64,000 bases of DNA from Octopus vulgaris (Eukaryota), in contig OX597815.1 of NCBI GenBank assembly GCA_951406725.2, positions 11,470,001-11,534,000 on the forward strand, in the 5' to 3' direction. Each line of letters opens with the position of its first letter. Position 1 is the stretch's first letter. The translations under genes were made by a program, and so were the position numbers. The notes beneath the pieces are model-generated. The model saw only the letters and a program-made list of their open reading frames with translations. It was not told where the DNA came from and ran no database searches. Positions 3,943-61,989 of this stretch are shown here, piece after piece.

Positions 3943-4254
3943 TATTTGCTAATAATAAATTAGTGAAGGCAACTCTTTGAAACATTGAGCGAATTCTGAA
4001 GGTTTTGTGTTTAGTTATTCTTATTTAACTAAAAAAGTAGTTACGTTAACCATTCAGACGTAATCAAATAGTGCATATTAGACTACATTAGTCAATATGC
4101 CTATCCCTTTTGAAAAGATAGTTTGGTACCATTGAGGTTCGGCGACTGTTTGTATGAAGATGCATGATCGCGCATTGGTTTCTTTACTGGCTGCTATCTG
4201 TCATAAAGACATAGATATATCTTAAAATCGTTATGCCATTAAAATCATATATAT

Positions 4255-4666
4255 TGCTTTACTGCCCACAAGGGGCTAAACATAGAGGGAACAAACAAGG
4301 ACAGGCAAAGGGATTAAGTCGATTACATCAACCTCAGTGCGAAACTGGTACTTTATTTATCGACCCCGGAAGGATTTTAGGCAAAGTCGACCTCGGCGGA
4401 ATTTGAACTCGGAACGTAACGACAAACGAAATACCTATTTCTTTATTACCCACAAGGGGCAAAACATAGAGAGGACAAACAAGGATAGACAAACGGATTA
4501 AGTCGATTACATCGACCACAGTGAGTAACTGGTACTTAATTAATCGACCCCGAAAGGTTGAAAGGCAAAGTCCACCTCGGCGGAATTTGAATTCAGAACG
4601 TAACGACAGACGAAATAGCTCTAAGCATTTCGCCCGGCGTGCTAACGTTTCTGCCAGCTCGCCGCC
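4255..4666 (-). mobile_element. tRNA-derived Nin/Deu-domain SINE family B (OR1-like), head-to-tail dimer
   Basis: Head ggcggcgagctggcagaaacgttagc; two copies of the Nin/Deu-like block gactttgcct..tcc/acct..cggggtcgat..aagtaccag. Confidence 0.88.
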
Positions 4667-8016: not shown

Positions 8017-8530
8017 TATAGCTGCATTTCTTCAATAAGTTTAAAAAAGAGGCGTCCCACACTGTTAAAATGCCTTTTCTGTTCATCAACATTTGTCTTG
8101 TACATTTCATAGAGCGAAAGGTTGCACGAAAAATGTTACATTGTAATTAACAGTGAATTTGACGATAAACAGAATTAAACCAGTTTGCCGAAATCTAATA
8201 ATCGTTGCAATACTAACTTGTGAGTCGTTTACCTTTATCTAACTTTTAATTTCTTTAGTGATTCTTTAAATTTGCATAAATGGAGTGAATTGCCTTCCCA
8301 TGAAAATTGGAAGCAAGTTAAAGTCAACTGGTGTTTATCAGGTTCATCGATACCTCCCCCCCCGCTTCATGTGCTGTGCGCACGTATCGACGAACATGGA
8401 TAGCTACCCTTTCAACCTCACTCATTACTTTGTTATTGTTCCGGTCTTTCTCTAATCAACTTGTAAATCCATTGATTATCTTGTTTTCACCGTTTCTTTC
8501 AATCAAATCCTTAGTGATCACCAAAAGTTC

Positions 8531-9077
8531 AAAGTTTCCCTCCCTATATGTTGTCTAATGAACTTAACAAGTCTTCTTATATCACTAAGAATATTTCGTT
8601 CGTTTCTGCTCGGAGAAGGACTTCAAAGTGTGTTATATTTAATATTTAATTCTTCCAGAGTTGATTAAATAAAGTACCAGCCAAATAGTAGTGACTCTAT
8701 TCCTATGAACGATCAATAGTACTAGAAAAAAAATGTAATAGAAATTATAAAGAACCTGGACAAGCGATAAGAAGTCCTGCTTTGACGCTTGGTTTCAAGA
8801 CGATTGGTATCGGCAATGATGCTTCATTACATGACCGCATGGTTTAGTGGAGAAAGTGAAGAAGAAAACCGGTTTTTGTACAGGCTACAGAGACTTGGTC
8901 TGAATACTTCCAACAGAGTGATTGTTCAGGGTACCAGACAGTACTGTTAAACTGGGCTAGAGAGCTAGTGTACAACTCAAGAAGAAATGCAGCCCTTCAA
9001 AGTTTCCCTTCCTATATGTTGTCTAATGAACTTAACAAGTTTTCTTATATCACTAAGAAGGTTCCGTTCGTTTCTGC
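8531..9077 (+). repeat. About 80 bp direct repeat pair (8531-8609 and 8997-9077)
   Basis: caaagtttccct.cctatatgttgtctaatgaacttaacaagt.ttcttatatcactaagaa...cgttcgtttctgc occurs twice. Confidence 0.85.
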
Positions 9078-28520: not shown

Positions 28521-28927
28521 GTATCCAATCTACTCGCACATAGATGTGTTGACATATATAAAAGTCAATACATACAAATTCAATACATGAATATATAAAG
28601 AATATATTCTTTATACCCCCTTTACATCTCCTTATATCTCTTTATATCTTTATGCTCTACATTTTTATATTTTTCTATACTTACACTTTTTATACATTTT
28701 TTATCCCTCGTCCTGAATTCTCGCCCCTCCATCTTCACGTATATACATGTATTTATTTATTTACATTACTTCAACATCCATTTTTCCTCATCCTACATTG
28801 AGAGAAGAAAGAGATGGACGCTTCAATTCTATGCTGCTGCCGCATTATGTCGTACGCGAATGGGAGGATTTGCATCCCCAACCAAGAATTTTTGATGTAA
28901 CACATGTCCTTGTGGAAGCTGTTGTGC

Positions 28928-29005
28928 GCGGCTGAAGAAGGCCACAGACATACATTATGCATTGTTATAAATATGTCTAATAAAGGCCCGAAACATATGT
29001 ACCGC
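28928..29005 (+). ncRNA. Type I hammerhead ribozyme (family H2)
   Basis: gcgg CTGAAGA a-ggcc...ggcc-c GAAA catatg TA^ ccgc; stem I gcgg/ccgc, palindromic stem III acatatgt, GUA triplet. Confidence 0.85.
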
Positions 29006-35202: not shown

Positions 35203-35802
35203 AGGGCGGCGAGCTGGCAGAAACGTTAGCACGCCGGGCGAAATGCGTAGCCGTATTTCGTTTGCTGTTACGTTCTGAGTTCAAATTCCGCCGAGGTCGA
35301 CTTTGCCTTTCATCCTTTCGGGGTCGATAAATTAAGTACCAGTTACGCACTGGGGTCGATATGGTCGACTTAATCCGTTTGTCTGTCCTTGTTTGTCCTC
35401 TCTGTGTTTAGCCCCCTTGTGGGTAGTAAAGAAATAGATATTTCGTTTGTCGCTACCTTCTGTGTTCAAATTCCGTCGAGGTCGACTTTGACTTTCATCC
35501 TTTCAGGGTCGATTAAATAAGTACCAGTTACGCACTGGAGTCGATATAATCGACTTAATACGTTTGTCTGTCCTTGTTTGTGCCTTCTGTGTTTAGCCCT
35601 TTGTGTGTAGTAAAGAAATAGGTATTTCGTTAGCCGTTACGTCCTGAGGTCAAATTCCGCCGAGGTCGACTTTGCCTTTCATTCTTTTGGGGTCGATAAG
35701 TAAATATCAGTTACGCACTGGGGTCGACGTAATCGGCTTAATCCATTTCTCTGTCCTTGTATGTCCCCTCTATGTTTAGCCTTCTGTAGGCAATAAAGAT
35801 AT
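35203..35802 (+). mobile_element. SINE family B head-to-tail trimer
   Basis: One head followed by three ~195 bp units, each with B box, Nin block and tail; imperfect flanking duplication aatattttga. Confidence 0.9.
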
Positions 35803-35804
35803 AA

Positions 35805-36245
35805 ATATTTTGAGGAAAACATTTGCAGGGATAGCAACTGCAGAGTTTGAAAATCCGATCCACAGATACACTGCTAAACTATGGATGTGTTATTGTAAAC
35901 TCATCAGGTACACGAAGTAGCCTAGAGGGCACTACTACAACAGTCTATAGCAGGGAAGGAAGCCTCGATACATCAGCTTTAATAAAAGGAAAAGCAGTCA
36001 GCATCTATGTTCTATCAATAGATATAGATAAACACAGACGAAAAAAAGAGTTTTAAAATTATCCTCTCTGCACCTAATGGATCTGAAGATCAAATAAATC
36101 ACCAAAGCTGTGCACATGCTAGGAGCAATATGCAAATATTCCCAAACACACAAAGAGACATTAAATCGGCAATTGGTAACATGTAACACAATATAACAAG
36201 CTGCATGAGCAGGTTATCGGTAATTTAATCGACTATTCTGATATT
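35805..36245 (+). mobile_element. I/Nimb-like LINE 3' fragment
   Basis: KAVSIYVL (resembles the xxxIFRLRTGH motif) followed by a PLCT.GSEDQ knuckle remnant; second copy at 31340. Confidence 0.5.
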
Positions 36246-42314: not shown

Positions 42315-42510
42315 ATATTGTTATATTTCGGAATGGTCACATAGCCAATAAAAACACACGTACTATATATTTGGTGTTATTTTTGGCCGAAATAAGATTA
42401 AGATTAATGTAAAAAATAAATAACACTGAAGCAAAGTAATACCAAATATATATTGCGTGTGTTTTTATTGGCTATACTGGCAAAATGACCATTCCGAAAT
42501 ATAACAATAT
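42315..42510. repeat. Imperfect ~65 bp inverted repeat next to (TA)n
   Basis: tattgttatatttcggaatggtca..atagccaataaaaacacacg (42315-42380) is inverted at 42436-42510. Confidence 0.8.
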
Positions 42511-42563: not shown

Positions 42564-42626
<63 letters not shown>

Positions 42627-42772
42627 AAAAGCAATAAAGATTCAAGTTAATTTAAATGAATTTACTTGAATATGGTACCTAACTTAGATGCACCAAAAAA
42701 ACTATACTGATTTAACAATACAGTAATGTGGGGTGATTATAAGCGAGAATGAAGCAACAAGAATGGATAGGT

Positions 42773-42863
42773 TTTTAGTACAATCGTTTCATACAAGGAC
42801 AGGTTTTATTAAAAGTTGCAAAAATTACAGCATATAAACGTGTCCCGTACTCATCAGCTAAAA
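42773..42863 (-). ncRNA. Type I hammerhead ribozyme (H4, inverted copy)
   Basis: Reverse complement of 43912-44002. Confidence 0.85.
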
Positions 42864-43471
42864 TACATGTGAGTTCTCTAGACATCCTAGTGGTTGAGGC
42901 TATACTCATGAAGTAATGTAGATAATTAAGTAACATAAACAGATTTCAAAAGTTCATTAAAGTTCTTTAAAGATGATGTACAGTCTTATCACAGAATTTT
43001 AAAACAGAATTTAAAAAAAGTCTTAATAGCATCACAGAGAAGGTGACCCAATCCATAGTGCACATATGAATTTCCAGAGATATGATGAGGGATTACATAC
43101 TCACAGAAGGCAAATTTATCCATTGTTAATTACAACGAGGTGGGTTTCAATTCCTGCTTATTAGCATTACAGAGAGGGTGAATTAATCCTTTGTATAGAT
43201 GCACAATTTCCAATGGTGTAGGTTTTTTTTTTCCTTTTCTTCTTCTTATTCTCTTTTTCCTTTTCTCTTCTCTTTGAGTCCCCCTTCCCCCCCCCTTTTT
43301 GCTCCCTCCTCTTTTATTTTCTTTCTTTTATTTTCTCTCTTTTCTTCTATGCCCCTCCCTTTTCTATTCTATACAGCTCTAGTAAGCCCTTCAGCCTTTA
43401 AAAGTTAAATAGCTACAGCCTCTTGTAAATAGCAGTAATGTGATTAATGTGGCAAATACCTAATCACATAG

Positions 43472-43786
43472 CAAGAATTGATACCTACCTCATTGTGTTC
43501 AACCATTGATAAATTTATCGCCTGTGAATATGAAATTCCTTGGAAATTTACACCTACACCATTGGAAATTGTGCATCTATACAAAGGATTAATTCACCCT
43601 CTCTGTAATGCTAATAAGCAGGAATTGAAACCCACCTCGTTGTAATTAACAATGGATAAATTTGCCTTCTGTGAGTATGTAATCCCTCATCATATCTCTG
43701 GAAATTCATATGTGCACTATGGATTGGGTCACCTTCTCTGTGATGCTATTAAGACTTTTTTAAAATTCTGTTTTAAAATTCTGTGA
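43472..43786 (+). pseudogene. 105-codon frame with one internal stop, made of two diverged Cys/His-rich repeats, upstream of the HHR
   Basis: QELIPTSLCSTIDKFIACEYEIP...VHLYKGLIHPLCNAN / KQELKPTSL*LTMDKFAFCEYVIP...VHYGLGHLLCDAI; several synonymous differences between the repeats. Confidence 0.55.
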
Positions 43787-43911
43787 TAAGACTGTACATC
43801 ATCTTTAAAGAACTTTAATGAACTTTTGAAATCTGTTTATGTTACTTAATTATCTACATTACTTCATGAGTATAGCCTCAACCACTAGGATGTCTAGAGA
43901 ACTCACATGTA

Positions 43912-44002
43912 TTTTAGCTGATGAGTACGGGACACGTTTATATGCTGTAATTTTTGCAACTTTTAATAAAACCTGTCCTTGTATGAAACGATTGTACTAA
44001 AA
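43912..44002 (+). ncRNA. Type I hammerhead ribozyme (H4)
   Basis: ttttag CTGATGA gtacgggaca...tgtccttgtat GAAA c gatt g TA^ ctaaaa. Confidence 0.85.
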
Positions 44003-44073
44003 ACCTATCCATTCTTGTTGCTTCATTCTCGCGTATATATATATATATATATATTTATATATACATATATATA

Positions 44074-47410: not shown

Positions 47411-47587
47411 ATAAGTATGCCTCGCATAATACCAATGTGATGGTATTAATACTTATGTATGATATTAAGGCAGTGAGCTGGCATTTCGTCTGTCTTTACA
47501 TTCTGGCTTCAAAGTAGACTGAGGACGACTTTGCCTTTCACCCATTCACCTGACTTCGTATTTTGATTTTTGGGAATTCTCCTCACT

Positions 47588-47624
<37 letters not shown>

Positions 47625-47629
<5 letters not shown>

Positions 47630-48273
47630 TGAATATAAGGGTAGCAAAAAATTCTAGAAAAAATTCTCCACTACCAGCGGTCCAGCGAGAAAGAAAAGAT
47701 AGTCAAAGACTATATAATATACATTCAAAAATATAAGGAATGACCATAATAGGACATTCGACTCACTAGAAAGAGTCCTATTATGGCCATTCCTTATATT
47801 TTTGAATGTATATTATATAGTCTTTGACAATCTTTTCTTTCTCGCTGGACCGCTGGTAGCGGAAAATTTTCTCTAGAATTTTTTGCTACCCTTATATTTA
47901 TTAATTAATGATTTTTTGGCTAATTTTGAAATTAAATCAGCAGTTTATATTTGCTGCTGAGAAGACCGCGCGATTGCGGTAGATTTTGAAAATTTATAGC
48001 ATATCGACTGGAGGCTTCCTTACCCACGCCTCGTGAATATATACTCGTCCTTGGCTTCTCTGCTGATGAGGCACGCCAGTTGTAAATAAATTTAATTTAA
48101 TTTAATTAATTTGTTTACCAAAGTTTGCCGAAATTATGCATAGTCCAGAGATGAAAGGGGTAAACGTTTTTATTTCTCTTTCAATTTCAGAATTACAAGT
48201 ATTAGCGGTTTGAGTTTGACTGCTCTTTCTAGTGAATCGAATGTCCTATTATGGTCATTCCTTATATTTTTGA

Positions 48274-48280
<7 letters not shown>
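47625..48280 (+). mobile_element. HHR element (family H5): 468 nt partial tandem unit with an inverted 5' arm, inside (TA)n
   Basis: gtcctattatgg at 47775 and 48243; 47625-47775 is the reverse complement of sequence spanning the unit junction. Confidence 0.88.
48057..48151 (+). ncRNA. Type I hammerhead ribozyme (H5)
   Basis: tctctg CTGATGA ggca...tgcc GAAA ttatgcatag TC^ cagaga; palindromic tatgcata in stem III. Confidence 0.9.
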
Positions 48281-48335
<55 letters not shown>

Positions 48336-48371: not shown

Positions 48372-48526
48372 GACAGGCTTCTTTAAGTTTTTGTCTACCA
48401 GTTCCACTTTGGTCTTGGCTCGAGGTTATAGTAGAAGCCAGTTGCCGAAGTTGCCACGCAGTGGGACTGAATTTTGAAACATATGGTTAGGACGCAAACC
48501 TCTTACGACAGAGCCATGCGTGCGCC
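48372..48526 (-). mobile_element. Degraded family A SINE 5' half
   Basis: ccacgcagtgggactgaa and gacaggcttcttt blocks. Confidence 0.7.
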
Positions 48527-49079
48527 TGATTTATGAATGCATATGTATATGTATTTATAAAATACTTGCTGATCATTATTTTATATTGTTCTGGAATATT
48601 GTCTCGTAAAATGTATGTACGGGCAATGTTTTACACATATTCAGGTAGGCGGTATTTTGAAAAGTTAAGAGTTGTACAAGATGTAAATAAAAAAAAAGGA
48701 AAGAATCACAAAATGGTTCGTTACTCTGCTCACGTCATATGTTTCCCTTGACAATATTGCATTGGTTTTGGTTTAATTCTATTATTGTATAATGAGGTTA
48801 AATTACATTAATTTTAGTGTTCGGTGGTATAATGACGGCTTCTAAATACAGCAAGATATCACCTTACTGAATATGTTAACTGTGTAGATATCATATTGAC
48901 TCAAAACAAGTACGACGCGATTAAGAGTACCAAATATTATGTCACGTTTGAAATACACTTGAGCACTTTCATTGGTAAACATAAAAAGACAGGTGCTTCT
49001 GATAATCTTTGCGGTAGTTGCTAATTTACTGTTGAGGTATGGATGTGTTTGCAGCAGTAAATGTTTACTTACTTGTACT

Positions 49080-54295: not shown

Positions 54296-54302
<7 letters not shown>

Positions 54303-54568
54303 ACAAAATAAGGGCAAAAGACAATTTTGTCTTTTTTTCGGCATATTTGGCATTAGAATTTTTTCTTTGCCCTTTATTTTGTAAATTATTTATAAATTTA
54401 ACCTTTAAAGGTATTTTTTGATATGCTAGCCATTGATAAAATTTTTTTCCCGAAAAAATTTTATCCTACATTAGTTATTTGTATATATATGCATATATAT
54501 ATATATATATGTATATATATATGTATATATATGTATATATATATGTGTGTTTATATATATACATACAC

Positions 54569-54610
<42 letters not shown>

Positions 54611-54895
54611 CAAAAGAAAGAGTGAACAAACGGTATGGACGTATTATTTTGGTGCCTCGCTTTGCCATATACGACTATGAGGATTTGCATTTCCAACGAA
54701 ACTCGTCTTTTTCCAAAAATTCTTCTCAAACCTTCTATAATGTAATACATGTCTTTGGTGTGGTAATTGTGCGCGGCTGAAGAAGGCTATTGACATACAT
54801 GTTACATCAATTATGCATTGATATAAACTGTCCAATAAAGCCAGAAACATATGTACCGCTAAATCCTTTGCATCCTGATTTTCTTTTGATAAATA
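54296..54895 (+). mobile_element. HHR element of family H2, circularly permuted relative to 28.7-29.2 kb, with 5' fold-back
   Basis: Fold-back 54296-54389; block 54392-54470 is homologous to 29115-29203; ORF plus HHR at 54610-54890 homologous to 28800-29040. Confidence 0.75.
54773..54859 (+). ncRNA. Type I hammerhead ribozyme (H2)
   Basis: gcgg CTGAAGA a-ggct...agcc-a GAAA catatg TA^ ccgc; compensatory stem II change relative to the 28928 copy. Confidence 0.85.
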
Positions 54896-55598: not shown

Positions 55599-55649
<51 letters not shown>

Positions 55650-55650
<1 letters not shown>

Positions 55651-58600
55651 TATAGAGTGTTACGTGTGATGTACAGAAATTGAATATTTCTTTCCTTCAA
55701 TTTCTGTACTTCACACCTAACACTCTCTACTTATCTCCTTGGATGTACAAAGTGTCAGAATGAATGTATCACAAGCAAACTCGTAGCCGAGAAACATCAA
55801 ATATACAGAACTTCTCACAGAAATATCTAATAGGTTGAATTTATTTATTTCAAGAGTGGATACAATCTTCACCAATGCAGATAAAACTGTGAATGATGCC
55901 CGTACAGAAGGTGCTGTAACAATAGAGACAAACAACAAAAATGTAGGAAGAACGAACTCACTTGAAACCAAGTCTCTGTAAGTTCCACGACAAAACACCT
56001 TGAAGCCACATCTCTGGAAAAAAATACTTCTTAATCAACGGAAACATGCATATTGGAGAAGCATTCGATGCAACAATATAGAAAACACCTACCAGAATTG
56101 GCGAAACAAAGGAAGCCTAATCCTGCCCAGAAAATTTTTTATTAAAGAAATAGGAATTGAATCATTGGAAGAGACAATGACACTTGCGAATTTAGCTTTA
56201 TGCCGACAAGAAACAGAAATCGCTCTTGTACAATCAAGAAAAATAAGACACGAAGAGAAAGTAAAAAATATTGACGCAGTCGTATTTGCTGAAATTGCTG
56301 AGCAGAGTGAAAATCAATGTCATGAAAACCTGCAAAAACTATGGAAAGAAGACACAAAACGGGAAGAAGAAAAATCCATAAAAATGTGGTTCACTAACTA
56401 TGAAAAAAGAAAAACTATGGAGACAAATCCATTATGAAAACGAAGCCACATCAACAAAAGAAAAAAGAAATACGAAGAAATCGAAACCAAATACTAACCC
56501 CAGAGGAACAGGACTGAAGTATTGAACCTGTAATAACCCAAGAACGTACGCGGAAATTACCTCCATCTCACATCAAGTACAGACTAGAAAACCATATTCT
56601 AAAATATATAACACTGCAAATAGCCAACACATGAAATATAGAAGACAACCATCAAACCATAAATTCAAACACTATAGATAGATAAATACAAAGGAAATAA
56701 TACATGAAAGACGAATGACATACAGACAATCACCAACCCGTAACAACATGCACCCCAGATGGATGAATACATGGGTAGAAAAACAAATAAAATACAGACA
56801 GCACATGTACTATAATAGGAATAATAGTCATCATGATAACTCAAGCTACTCACGATTTACGACCAAAAATCCCATATATCCTGAATGGCGAAAAAGGCAT
56901 GGAAGATGGGAAGAAAAGAAAACTTATAACCAACGGAATTCGTATAAAAGACATGAACTATCCTTCCGCCTACATGGGAACCAGAACGCCGAAATCATAA
57001 AATGGAGACATGGTAATACAATTCCTTTTTTAGGGAGAAACAACCAAAATTGCGCACTTGCCTAGATAAAATACATAATTTAAATGAACACACAGAACAT
57101 ATAGACCCGAAGATCATAAATTTGTCAAATAAACAAGAGTCATATGAATCTCCCATTAAAAGGTTTCAAGTTTATCCCGACACCCACCCCTAATTTCACT
57201 GAACTGAAATCTGATATTGAACACTTCAACTGCCACTTCCGACTTAGAATTCTTCAGCAGTAAAGAATTAAATGACGAATCAATAGTCAGAAATAATCCC
57301 ACTTCCCCCTACAAGGGAAAGGACAAATAGTTAGACGCGTATATAGAGACGATTTAAAAATTTCCCCTAAATACCAACAGATGCAAACAAAACCTTCGTG
57401 AAGAAGAAAGGCAAGCCTTACAAACACTGAAGAATGACAACCCAGTCATTCTAAAAGAAGCCGATGAGGGAGGGGCGATAGTAATAATGGACAAGGGCTA
57501 TTATAAAGATAAAATACTGGAAATGTTAACAAACTAAACCTACTACAAGGAAGAACCAAGACACTCAGAAAAAACGATAATGAATAAAATCAGAAGACTA
57601 ATCAATGAATTCCAAGATTCCTTCACAGACAAGGAGAAAGATTATATATGCAACTCTGTAATCAAAGAGAGCAATTTCTACGGATTTTGGGTACAAAATC
57701 CACAGAAGCTCCGAAATACAAACTGCCATAAATAAGCAGAAGAACCAGTACGCAAAAATACTAAACCCTGCTGACCTCAAACTAAGGCCAATAGTTGCTG
57801 GACCTCAAGCACTAACACAACAACTAATTCATTTTTTGTAGATATACTCCTAAACCCTGTAATGCCTAGTCATGTACAGGATGGCATAGACTCCATCCAA
57901 CACATCCCTCCCACTGTCGCAGAAGTTGCTATACGCACAAGTTTTGATGTCACCAATCTCTATACTAATATACCTCACACTTTAGGTCTAGAAGCCTCAA
58001 CACTGGGTGGAGAAACATAGAGAACGGATAAATGAACGCTTCAAGACTTACTTCACCACCTAGGCCACACGCCTAGAACTAAAATAAAATACCTTTAGAT
58101 TCGACAATAAAACATACCAACGTATAGGGCATGGCTATGGGTACGCGATTTGCACCCTCATATGCAAACTTAGTTATGGGATACTTGGAAGAAAAACTCT
58201 ATGAGGAAGTAGAAAAATCTTTTGATCAGGAGAATAAGAACTATATCATTAAAAAGTGGAAACGCTTCCTTGATGATTGCTTAATTTTCTGGGACAAATC
58301 GAATGAAGATCTAACTATATTTAACGTTATACTGAACACACTTGACCTATGCATCGAATTCATGACAGAATCCACTTGCAATGGACTACCATTCCTGGCT
58401 ATCCACATAAAAGTACAGAACTCCACTGTCACAACATACACAAACCAATATTTAAATTTCTATTTTTGCCATGTATCACACATCAAAAGAAACATCCCAT
58501 ACAGTATGGCAAGACACATCTTTGCTATAGTAACTGACCCCAAAATACGTGAAATACGACTCAACGAACTTAAAGGGTTCTTCAAGATGCATAAATACCC

Positions 58601-59384: not shown

Positions 59385-59532
59385 GTCGCCGAGGTCGACT
59401 TTGCCTTTCATCCTTTCGGGGTCGATAAATTAAGTACCAGTTACGCACTGGGGTCGATGTAATCGACTTAATCACTTTGTCTGTCCTTGTTTGTCCCCTC
59501 TATGTTTAGCCCCTTGTGGGCAATAAAGAAAT
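59385..59532 (+). mobile_element. 5'-truncated family B SINE
   Basis: Nin block and long tail. Confidence 0.85.
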
Positions 59533-59826
59533 ATATACTAATGTTCCCTAATGCAAAAACATGAAATTGAAAGAGACGTAATCGAAGTTACACAGTATAA
59601 ACATGGACATGAAATACACACACGCACGCGCACACACTCGCACACATACACACGCGTGCGCGCACGCACAAACACTTCATCAGAGGATTCTCTCCCAAAT
59701 TGAATGTTTGAAGGTAAAGTAGAGAATTTGAATTTTTTATTCTAAATGTGGCTCATCTCTACAAATGTTCAAAGATATACATGTAGCTTGGGGATGTTCC
59801 TGCTCTACGTATATATGTTTTTATGT

Positions 59827-59859
<33 letters not shown>

Positions 59860-61095
59860 TATACCAATTAAGGACTGAACACGAAAAGTGGACAGTCAAC
59901 ATGCTAGATATAGACGTCAAATCGCCATTCTCCACAAAGATTATGTTCTCAAATAAAACTCAGCACAAAACCAAAGCAATAAAGAAGACAAATGAAAATA
60001 TACGAAATAAAATAATTACCCATGTACTGATCAGTTTCGGTTATTATTATCCGCAAGGATAACTGTAATTTCATCAGCATGGTCTGTTATGAATATAATT
60101 TGCTGGACTAGATGCAAAAACGACACCGGAGTGTCTCGTGCATGGAGTTCAACCGATTATATTCGAATGTATTTTTCAAATGCCTTTACTTTGGCGCGCT
60201 GAGGCCCGAAAAATCATATATATATAAATATAGGGTTTTATTTATTTAATTACAAAATATTTAATTTCCAAATATTATACTAATGTTTTTTTCATGCAGA
60301 ACTACATTTCATCCAAAAATTCTCTCTAAAATTGAATATTTGTAAGAAAAGAGGAGACGGTGCATTTTGAATACTAAATATAACTCAAACAGGAGAAAAA
60401 GAAAGAGAGGGGAAAAAGAAGGAAAATGGGAAGAGAAAGCAAAATGAATTTCAGTGATGACCACACCGCACGAGTTTCTTTTTTTTTTTTGAAGGGGTCA
60501 CCGTCCTTAAAACCATTCCAATACAATGGTAAATAAGTAAATGAATAAATGAATAAATTAATGTTGAATAGGAAGGGGTATCACCCTTCTCTCTCTTTTC
60601 CCCTTTTTTCTTTTTTTTTCTTTTCCTTTTTTTGTTCTTTTTTTTTCCTTTATTTTTGTTCTTTTTTCCCTTTTACGATCCCTTTTGATCGAAAACCTAC
60701 GCCACCTTTTTTTTTTCTCCCCGAAAAGAAAAGCTCTACCTTGTAACTTGTCCCATCTGTGTGCAGCCCTGTGTGGCCAATAAAGAAACTTATCATATCT
60801 CTATCTATCTATTTATCTTTCTATCTAACTATCTATCTATCTATCAGTCAGCCTATATACATCCTTACATTTCGATCTATCCATCCCCATTGTCATGGAA
60901 CCTCACCACCAAAAGAAACAAAGACAATATTCTCTTCTAAACAAAACCTCCCCAAAAACATCTGTTTTATATAAATGAACGAGCGTTTTGTACATTCACA
61001 GGGTTTTATTTGACAAGTTCGAGAAACAAAAGAAAGCGCTAATAATAATGATGAAGAAATAAGATATTTTCCAAAATTCTGACGAGCTTTTTGCT

Positions 61096-61142
<47 letters not shown>

Positions 61143-61144
<2 letters not shown>

Positions 61145-61982
61145 TATATAATTAGGGCTTAGTAAAATAAATTATTTTGCCACATACTGAACTTGCTAGA
61201 AATAGCAGCCAAAAAAAGTTTTTTTGCCATTTCCACTACTTAAAGAAAATTTCTCTCAGATAATGTTTACTCAAAATAACTCACGAAGGTATGGAGGTAA
61301 AAACAGAAAAATATCACAAGTACAAAGATTATTTGAGAACGTTAACGTTTCTAGATTAGCCAAATAAACTCAGCATTTCTTTCGTCAGCTCAACATTTCT
61401 TATTTTGGATTTGGAAGCACTAAAAAGAAAGAACATACCCTTTGGCGACTTATCACCTCAGATGACCCGTTCAGACTGCCAGTACCAACAAATTCAAAAT
61501 GTGCAAGCGAAGATTCACTGCTCTCCCCTTCCACCCACGTGGGTTATCTAGCAAACATTATATTTTAACGGTGAGAACCGAGGCAATATGACAGAGAGAA
61601 ATGAATTATATCAACAATTGAGGGTAAAATTAATTAGTCATTAATCAATTTCACCAAGTATTCAGTATGTAAAAGGACCATTTAAGGCGAATTCAAAATA
61701 TTACATTATATAATTAGGGCTTAGTAAAATAAATTACTTTGCCACATACTGAACTTGCTAGAAATAGCAGCCAAAAAAAAGTTTTTTTGCCATTTCCACT
61801 ACTTAAAGAAAATTTCTCTCAGATAATGTTTACTCAAAATAACTCACGAAGGTATGGAGGTAAAAACAGAAAAATATCACAAGTACAAAGATTATTTGAG
61901 AACGTTAACTTTATTTGAGAACGTTACATACTGAATACTTGGTGAAATTGATTAATAACTAATTAATTTTACCCTCAATTGT

Positions 61983-61989
<7 letters not shown>
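61143..61989 (-). mobile_element. HHR element (family H6): ~562 nt partial tandem unit with an inverted 5' arm, inside (TA)n
   Basis: Direct repeat 61143-61346 / 61705-61909; 61924-61989 is the inverse of 61607-61672. Confidence 0.88.
61333..61393 (-). ncRNA. Type I hammerhead ribozyme (H6)
   Basis: Minus strand ttgag CTGACGA aaga...tcta GAAA cgttaacg TT^ ctcaa; palindromic stem III; first stem II pair mismatched. Confidence 0.75.

Follow-up and report, generated by a model that had tools for sequence, protein, structure and literature searches.

A 468-nt element of Octopus vulgaris that is probably a non-autonomous, retrozyme-like derivative of a Penelope-like element (PLE) inserted in a (TA)n tract

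The analysed window is a 64,000-nt stretch of the Octopus vulgaris genome (GCA_951406725.2, contig OX597815.1, positions 11,470,001 to 11,534,000, forward strand), and the coordinates given here are counted from its first letter. As listed in Table 1, the locus under study holds two copies of one sequence arranged 5'-to-5' at 47775, with both 3' ends pointing outward into microsatellite. The forward copy (47775-48281) is 507 nt long and has a period of 468 nt, in such a way that its first 39 nt are found again at its end (47775-47813 and 48243-48281, spacing 468, 38 of 39 identical), the last 5-6 nt of this redundancy blending into the (TA)n tract. Position 47775/48243 is the start point of the inserted forward copy, and a predicted hairpin spans it. 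Once reverse-complemented, the inverted arm gives an ungapped alignment that covers the last 20 nt of the unit and continues into its first 131 nt, with identity at 144 of 151 sites, and BLAST gave E values of 5e-114 for the palindrome and 2e-25 for the arm against the unit end. A preliminary description had given a 468-nt unit with its first ~38 nt repeated at the end, and an arm at 47625-47775 linking the unit end to the unit start over ~130 nt; both hold, the redundancy being 39 nt with one mismatch and the arm running from -20 to +131.

The 3' end of the inverted arm lies 92 nt beyond that of the forward copy (98 nt by motif register), both ends being on (TA)n with a TA-like overlap with internal sequence. 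A GACTC/GAGTC micro-palindrome was noted by eye at the head-to-head junction. The locus contains 1.08 units, with a single ribozyme. A target-site duplication could not be discerned there, and from the alignment the redundancy is not one either, because the template continued to at least +131, as seen in the arm. A SINE-like repeat fragment lies to the left of the element and a different dispersed repeat (48372-48527) to the right. In a host read-through transcript of 47625-47905, the 131-bp, 95% complementary arms would pair into an extended double-stranded hairpin that might be edited or processed into small RNAs.

Table 1. Features of the 468-nt element and parallel elements in the window
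Feature	Position	Strand	Remarks
Forward copy, one 468-nt period	47775..48242	+	34% GC, strand-specific secondary structure
Inverted 5'-truncated arm (unit -20..+131)	47625..47775	-	144/151 to the circularised unit; without hammerhead
Head-to-head junction	47756..47775		19-nt spacer between arms, 1-nt overlap (G47775)
Type I hammerhead motif	48057..48151	+	predicted cut after C48145
Small hairpin spanning the wrap point, followed by CCTTATATTTTTGAAT	48239..48281	+	covers the 39-nt redundancy; putative RT start site 1
16-bp hairpin, then CCTTATATTTATTAAT	47855..47905	+	where the inverted arm ends; putative RT start site 2
Left (TA)n tract, insertion target	47588..47626		adjoins 3' end of inverted arm
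Right (TA)n tract, insertion target	48277..48327		adjoins 3' end of forward copy
Mirror-image parallel, unrelated sequence	61140-61989		562-nt period, 211-nt redundancy, 66-nt inverted arm
Recent PLE-type insertion	42625-44032		two 481-nt inverted arms, 99.8% identical, (TA)n flanks
Broken RT+GIY-YIG PLE	~55646-59350		fold-back palindrome (55646-55734) at its start, on (TA)n
Further hammerhead-like motifs	28924-29005, 54769-54860, 60020-60086	+, +, -	long domain II, palindromic helix III, imperfect helix II base

The hammerhead has a 6-bp helix I (48057-62 with 48146-51), the core segments CUGAUGA (48063-48069) and GAAA (48130-48133), a GUC triplet (48143-48145) and a domain II of 60 nt (48070-48129) with a helix II of 4 bp at its base. 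Helix III is a 12-nt palindrome (48133-44) that is also able to form a 4-bp stem within the monomer. The motif is above chance, the descriptor giving three motifs in the 64-kb window and none in 60 block-shuffled windows. Rfam showed no hammerhead in the whole window at the gathering threshold, in the region of the element at E<=5, or among the 150 of 282 matches listed for the window; its sub-threshold matches to miRNA hairpins in this region were dismissed as generic hairpins. The earlier claim of one canonical GUC hammerhead is upheld for core and triplet and had to be amended for size, which is not that of a canonical type I (60-nt domain II, Rfam blank). Since Rfam misses hammerheads with a long domain II, the number of ribozymes in such genomes may be underestimated.

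In the folding models, the active monomer fold of the ribozyme lies 3.3 kcal/mol above the minimum, and the dimer reaches -54.1 kcal/mol versus -37.4 kcal/mol for 2 x monomer. On these energies, the hammerhead would cleave well probably only as a dimer. PLE hammerheads have a palindromic helix III and work as dimers (PMC4209133), a behaviour that the modelled energetics fit. The predicted ribozyme boundary is at 48145/48146 (unit +371/+372). In the predicted fold of the circle, the pair probability of helix I is 1.5e-5, and the ribozyme is predicted to be sequestered in that form. With its single ribozyme, this copy cannot release a monomer by itself.

Neither a long ORF nor the RT and GIY-YIG reading frame of an autonomous PLE is present in the unit, whose GC content is 34%. 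A profile from 11/22 PLE homologues revealed no PLE coding remnant in the element, with a best score below zero, and the same profile gave E values down to 1e-72 on the remnant at 55.6-59.4 kb. Folded as a circle, the unit is 64% paired, with a z of -4.8 on the ribozyme strand versus -1.8 on the opposite one (60 shuffles); control windows (n=18/19 folded) ranged from -1.7 to +2.3. The gain from long-range pairing equals that of the shuffles (z 0.4 and 0.1), the signal being made of local hairpins. Opening the circle at the cut site ranked 29 of 78 linearisation points, nothing special, and 15 of 93 in the 562-nt element. On a tandem template, both end sites would fall within a domain closed by a predicted 13-bp helix (+147-159 with +409-421), which is also compatible with linear RNA. 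The comparison of arm and forward copy for compensatory change gave two stem changes that keep pairing, uninformative because both are transitions. The modelled structure marks the unit as a selected RNA but shows no circle, and it lends no support to a circle or to a cut-to-cut monomer.

As regards the two 3' ends, both show a hairpin followed by CCUUAUAUU, a motif likewise given as hairpin plus CCTTATATT. A hairpin and the same 16-mer precede the ends, with 16/16 matches at +18, 14/16 at +116 and 11/16 for the next best among 468 positions, the pattern having been picked post hoc at a single locus. The hairpins come partly from a sigma-70 scan, of which only they were used, the promoter part being irrelevant to a eukaryote. 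No signal emerged across families, where 1 of 31 non-simple ends matched (P 0.26); the pattern was ill-chosen and missed the present element itself. The putative RT start site 1 would lie 136 nt past the ribozyme cut, and site 2 would lie 228 nt past it on a tandem template. The offset between 3' ends is 92 nt here, against 95 nt for the 562-nt element and 118 nt for the one at 42.6 kb, that is, tails of 92-118 nt versus the 30-40 nt published for PLEs. The ends overlap TA-like sequence, whereas the element described in PMC11167929 starts without target homology. Tails of ~92-118 nt and the hairpin motif at both 3' ends are minor novelties. With both 3' ends mapped and a motif common to them, the 468-nt unit provides a specific prediction of where a PLE reverse transcriptase starts.

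Elsewhere in the window, the 562-nt element has (TA)n at both 3' ends, a z of -5.4 on its presumed sense strand and, on the minus strand, a hammerhead-like motif with its core at 61388, a GUU site at 61338 and a weak helix II, Rfam giving no match on 61150-61975. In its upstream repeat, the predicted ribozyme cut is no more than ~10 nt away from the 5' end of the element. Its use as a ribozyme-free negative control was dropped, since the hammerhead-like motif makes it a parallel case. In the insertion at 42625-44032, each arm ends in a GUA hammerhead with a 60-nt domain II (cores at 42857 minus and 43918 plus), the left arm is 118 nt longer, and most of the PLE layout is present. The broken PLE gave weak Pfam scores (E 0.006 and 0.04); its homologues carry RT and GIY-YIG domains, and the CX2-5CxxC linker of Neptune/Nematis-type PLEs is present in 11 of the 11 long ones. 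No DNA similarity between this remnant and the 468-nt element was found in the window, so that the remnant shows that such an enzyme existed in the genome, not that it is the partner. Pieces like the end of its ORF recur near 59692 and 60328.

Several other repeats were observed. The hammerhead-like motif at 28932 stops at (TA)n, ~37 nt beyond its GUA site, and fold-back palindromes stand beside TA tracts at 54299-54390 and 42315-42510, likely as more PLE 5' junctions. An 82-nt direct repeat (94%; 8528-8609 and 8996-9077) also has its copies 468 nt apart; this was taken as coincidence and not as a relative of the element, there being no common sequence, and no hammerhead in the scans. A 185-nt SINE-like repeat is abundant and partly tandem (4252-4617, 35254-35810), with dispersed copies, e.g., at 47483-47547 and 59387-59537.

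We consider it likely that the 468-nt element arose as one insertion of a retrozyme-like, non-autonomous PLE derivative, produced by target-primed reverse transcription from two ends, a mode known as twin priming. A PLE RT/GIY-YIG protein would have acted in trans to mobilise it from a source locus with more than one unit that gave a longer-than-unit RNA. The endonuclease would have nicked both strands of the (TA)n tract in which the element now lies, and the RT would have begun inside the RNA, past the ribozyme, at +39 and at +131, where the two copies end. Each start would fall just after the hairpin and CCUUAUAUU, where a UA-rich stretch could pair with the primer. One cDNA would have extended for 507 nt through the intact ribozyme and the other would have ended after 151 nt, and the two, which now stand head to head, would have been joined probably by fold-back or microhomology.

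Published PLE insertions show partial tandem copies, an adjacent inverted 5'-truncated copy, a tail at one end and microsatellite targets (PMC8557442). Head-to-head palindromic junctions, interpreted as self-priming, are described in PMC3846280 together with common internal deletions and with pLTRs that enclose non-coding sequence. In PMC11167929, a PLE protein was purified and shown to nick the two strands of the target and to extend both; its reverse transcription begins at two positions inside the RNA, past the hammerhead, the distance between which corresponds to the tail, and its main substrate in vitro is uncleaved RNA. The layout of the 468-nt element, as read from its sequence, matches these insertions except in tail length, and the preliminary description had overlooked that the whole of it (inverted 5'-truncated copy, tail, (TA)n target) is a PLE insertion signature. 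In the element we find the inverted 5'-truncated head-to-head copy, a type I hammerhead close to the repeat, (TA)n on either side, and a pLTR-like partial direct repeat flanking the body, short because the upstream copy is truncated; instead of a 30-40-bp tail at one end, there is a one-sided extension of 92 nt.

A reading that we regard as possible, though with less conviction, is that the insertion is the cDNA of an expressed, covalently closed 468-nt retrozyme RNA, copied slightly more than once around. It overlaps the PLE insertion reading and differs from it only by requiring a circle and tandem arrays. It would account for a copy of 507 nt, longer than the 468-nt period, in which the cut site is crossed intact, and for a structured unit; moreover, animal retrozymes are expressed as circles of ~170-400 nt (PMC7229834), retrozyme consensus lengths are 51-972 bp (10.64898/2026.07.22.740005), and a circular intermediate was proposed for PLEs (PMC4209133). 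However, the arm (-20..+131) does not reach the cut at +371/+372 and, in the coordinates of the unit, lies wholly inside the predicted ribozyme-defined monomer, no tandem array of 468-nt period exists at the locus, and neither long-range nor end-defining structure was detected in the element. Furthermore, the RNA used by PLEs in vitro is mostly uncleaved (PMC11167929), and in a Xenopus study 8 of 9 dimer constructs showed no cleavage (10.64898/2026.07.22.740005). The intact, uncleaved crossing of the cut by the forward copy is explained as well by an uncut tandem transcript as by a ligated circle, and we lean slightly towards the former as the template, a circular RNA being possible.

The preliminary description had read a continuous template, i.e., a circle or multimer, from the arm. 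A longer-than-unit template is still the simplest reading, but the arm, which misses the cut, is no proof of a circle; the label 'retrozyme-like' is a fair one for a short, ORF-less, structured and hammerhead-bearing unit. Tandem multimers of 468 nt, which that description had suggested looking for, were absent from the tandem list and the self-comparison of the window, and no second copy of the unit was found in the 64 kb. A 24-nt stretch of the ribozyme motif had 0 exact matches in GTDB genomes, which are uninformative for an animal element, and a 46-aa frame across the wrap point also had 0 matches. Both the status as a family and the period of 468 nt depend on a single locus, and the absence of other copies says little because the collections compared could hardly contain one.

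Somewhat more doubtful is the proposal that the 468-nt and 562-nt elements are both offspring of circular retrozyme RNAs with long-domain-II hammerheads, in which the duplicated hairpin and CCUUAUAUU set both RT starts. Tails of ~95 nt and TA-paired priming would then be explained by this cis signal. If true, a full PLE signature on retrozymes would be direct structural evidence of PLE enzymes mobilising retrozymes, a link argued from co-occurrence and pLTR similarity in 10.64898/2026.07.22.740005.

It is rather improbable that the 468-nt period is an accident of one insertion and that the source was a longer PLE-type element, either because fold-back copying of the arm supplied nt 1-131 of the forward copy, which were joined to a second, 5'-truncated cDNA, or because a long element lost its middle part. 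The near-palindromic junction with its 19-nt spacer follows the self-priming pattern of PMC3846280, where internal deletions are likewise common; the homology between arm and forward copy stops exactly at the (TA)n border, and a single copy is known. Against this, a second seamless junction would be required exactly at +131, no ORF remnant lies on either side of it, and the predicted 13-bp helix would enclose both end sites on a tandem template. The 562-nt element has, in addition, a true short periodicity: since its 211-nt redundancy cannot come from its arm, short periodic templates exist in this genome. Finally, a DNA-level rearrangement or assembly artefact (fold-back chimera, microsatellite break repair or a MITE with terminal inverted repeats) is very improbable, although long inverted repeats beside (TA)n are hard to assemble, since the arms differ at 7 of 151 sites, the inverted arm has 20 nt missing from the adjoining forward start and is internal-facing instead of terminal on both sides, the ribozyme is intact, and unrelated sequences show the same layout.

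We compared the PLE derivative proposed here with known systems. Endonuclease-containing PLEs (of Neptune/Nematis type, judged by target) have in common with it the partial direct repeat, the inverted 5'-truncated head-to-head copy, the palindromic junction, the (TA)n target and a type I hammerhead upstream of the 3' ends, whereas the element has no RT/EN ORF, a period of only 468 nt and an offset of 92 nt instead of 30-40. Non-autonomous PLE derivatives (MRC1/Chlamys and the pLTR-captured sequences of Adineta) are likewise ORF-less, form pLTRs and move in trans, as proposed for the element; Chlamys mostly lack canonical hammerheads, and no autonomous partner with matching ends was identified in the window. 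The minimal hammerheads of PLEs described in PMC4209133 are also of type I, with palindromic helix III and predicted dimer action, but have a helix II of 6-8 bp, far shorter than that of the element.

Literature on octopus hammerheads, octopus Penelope and cephalopod retrozymes yielded no account of this family, and repeat libraries or supplementary alignments may hold it or hammerheads with long helix II. The portion of PMC13282606 drawn on here reports recently active Penelope families in Octopus vulgaris and mentions no ribozymes, and 235 hammerhead matches are given for giant squid (PMC6962438).

Animal retrozymes are described as tandemly repeated units, each with a type I hammerhead, that are expressed in circular form and have PLEs as their proposed mobiliser (PMC7229834), and they have been called non-autonomous PLE derivatives, with solo monomers counted and activity requiring two ribozyme-bearing units (10.64898/2026.07.22.740005). 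The 468-nt element resembles the non-LTR animal retrozymes in being short and non-coding with GC below 50% (468 nt, 34% GC, no ORF and no LTR layout), in having one type I hammerhead per unit and a highly self-paired RNA (64%, z -4.8, local hairpins), and in sharing its genome with PLEs; solo monomers are known among them. It differs from them in the 60-nt domain II and in the lack, at its own locus, of a tandem array of at least two units with a hammerhead each, and from most of their circles in that its ribozyme is predicted to be sequestered. It behaves like the offspring of a tandem retrozyme without being tandem itself. As one more PLE-type insertion in a genome with several per 64 kb it is unsurprising, and its value is that of a compact test case: a retrozyme-sized unit with a PLE layout, which bears on which enzyme moves animal retrozymes.
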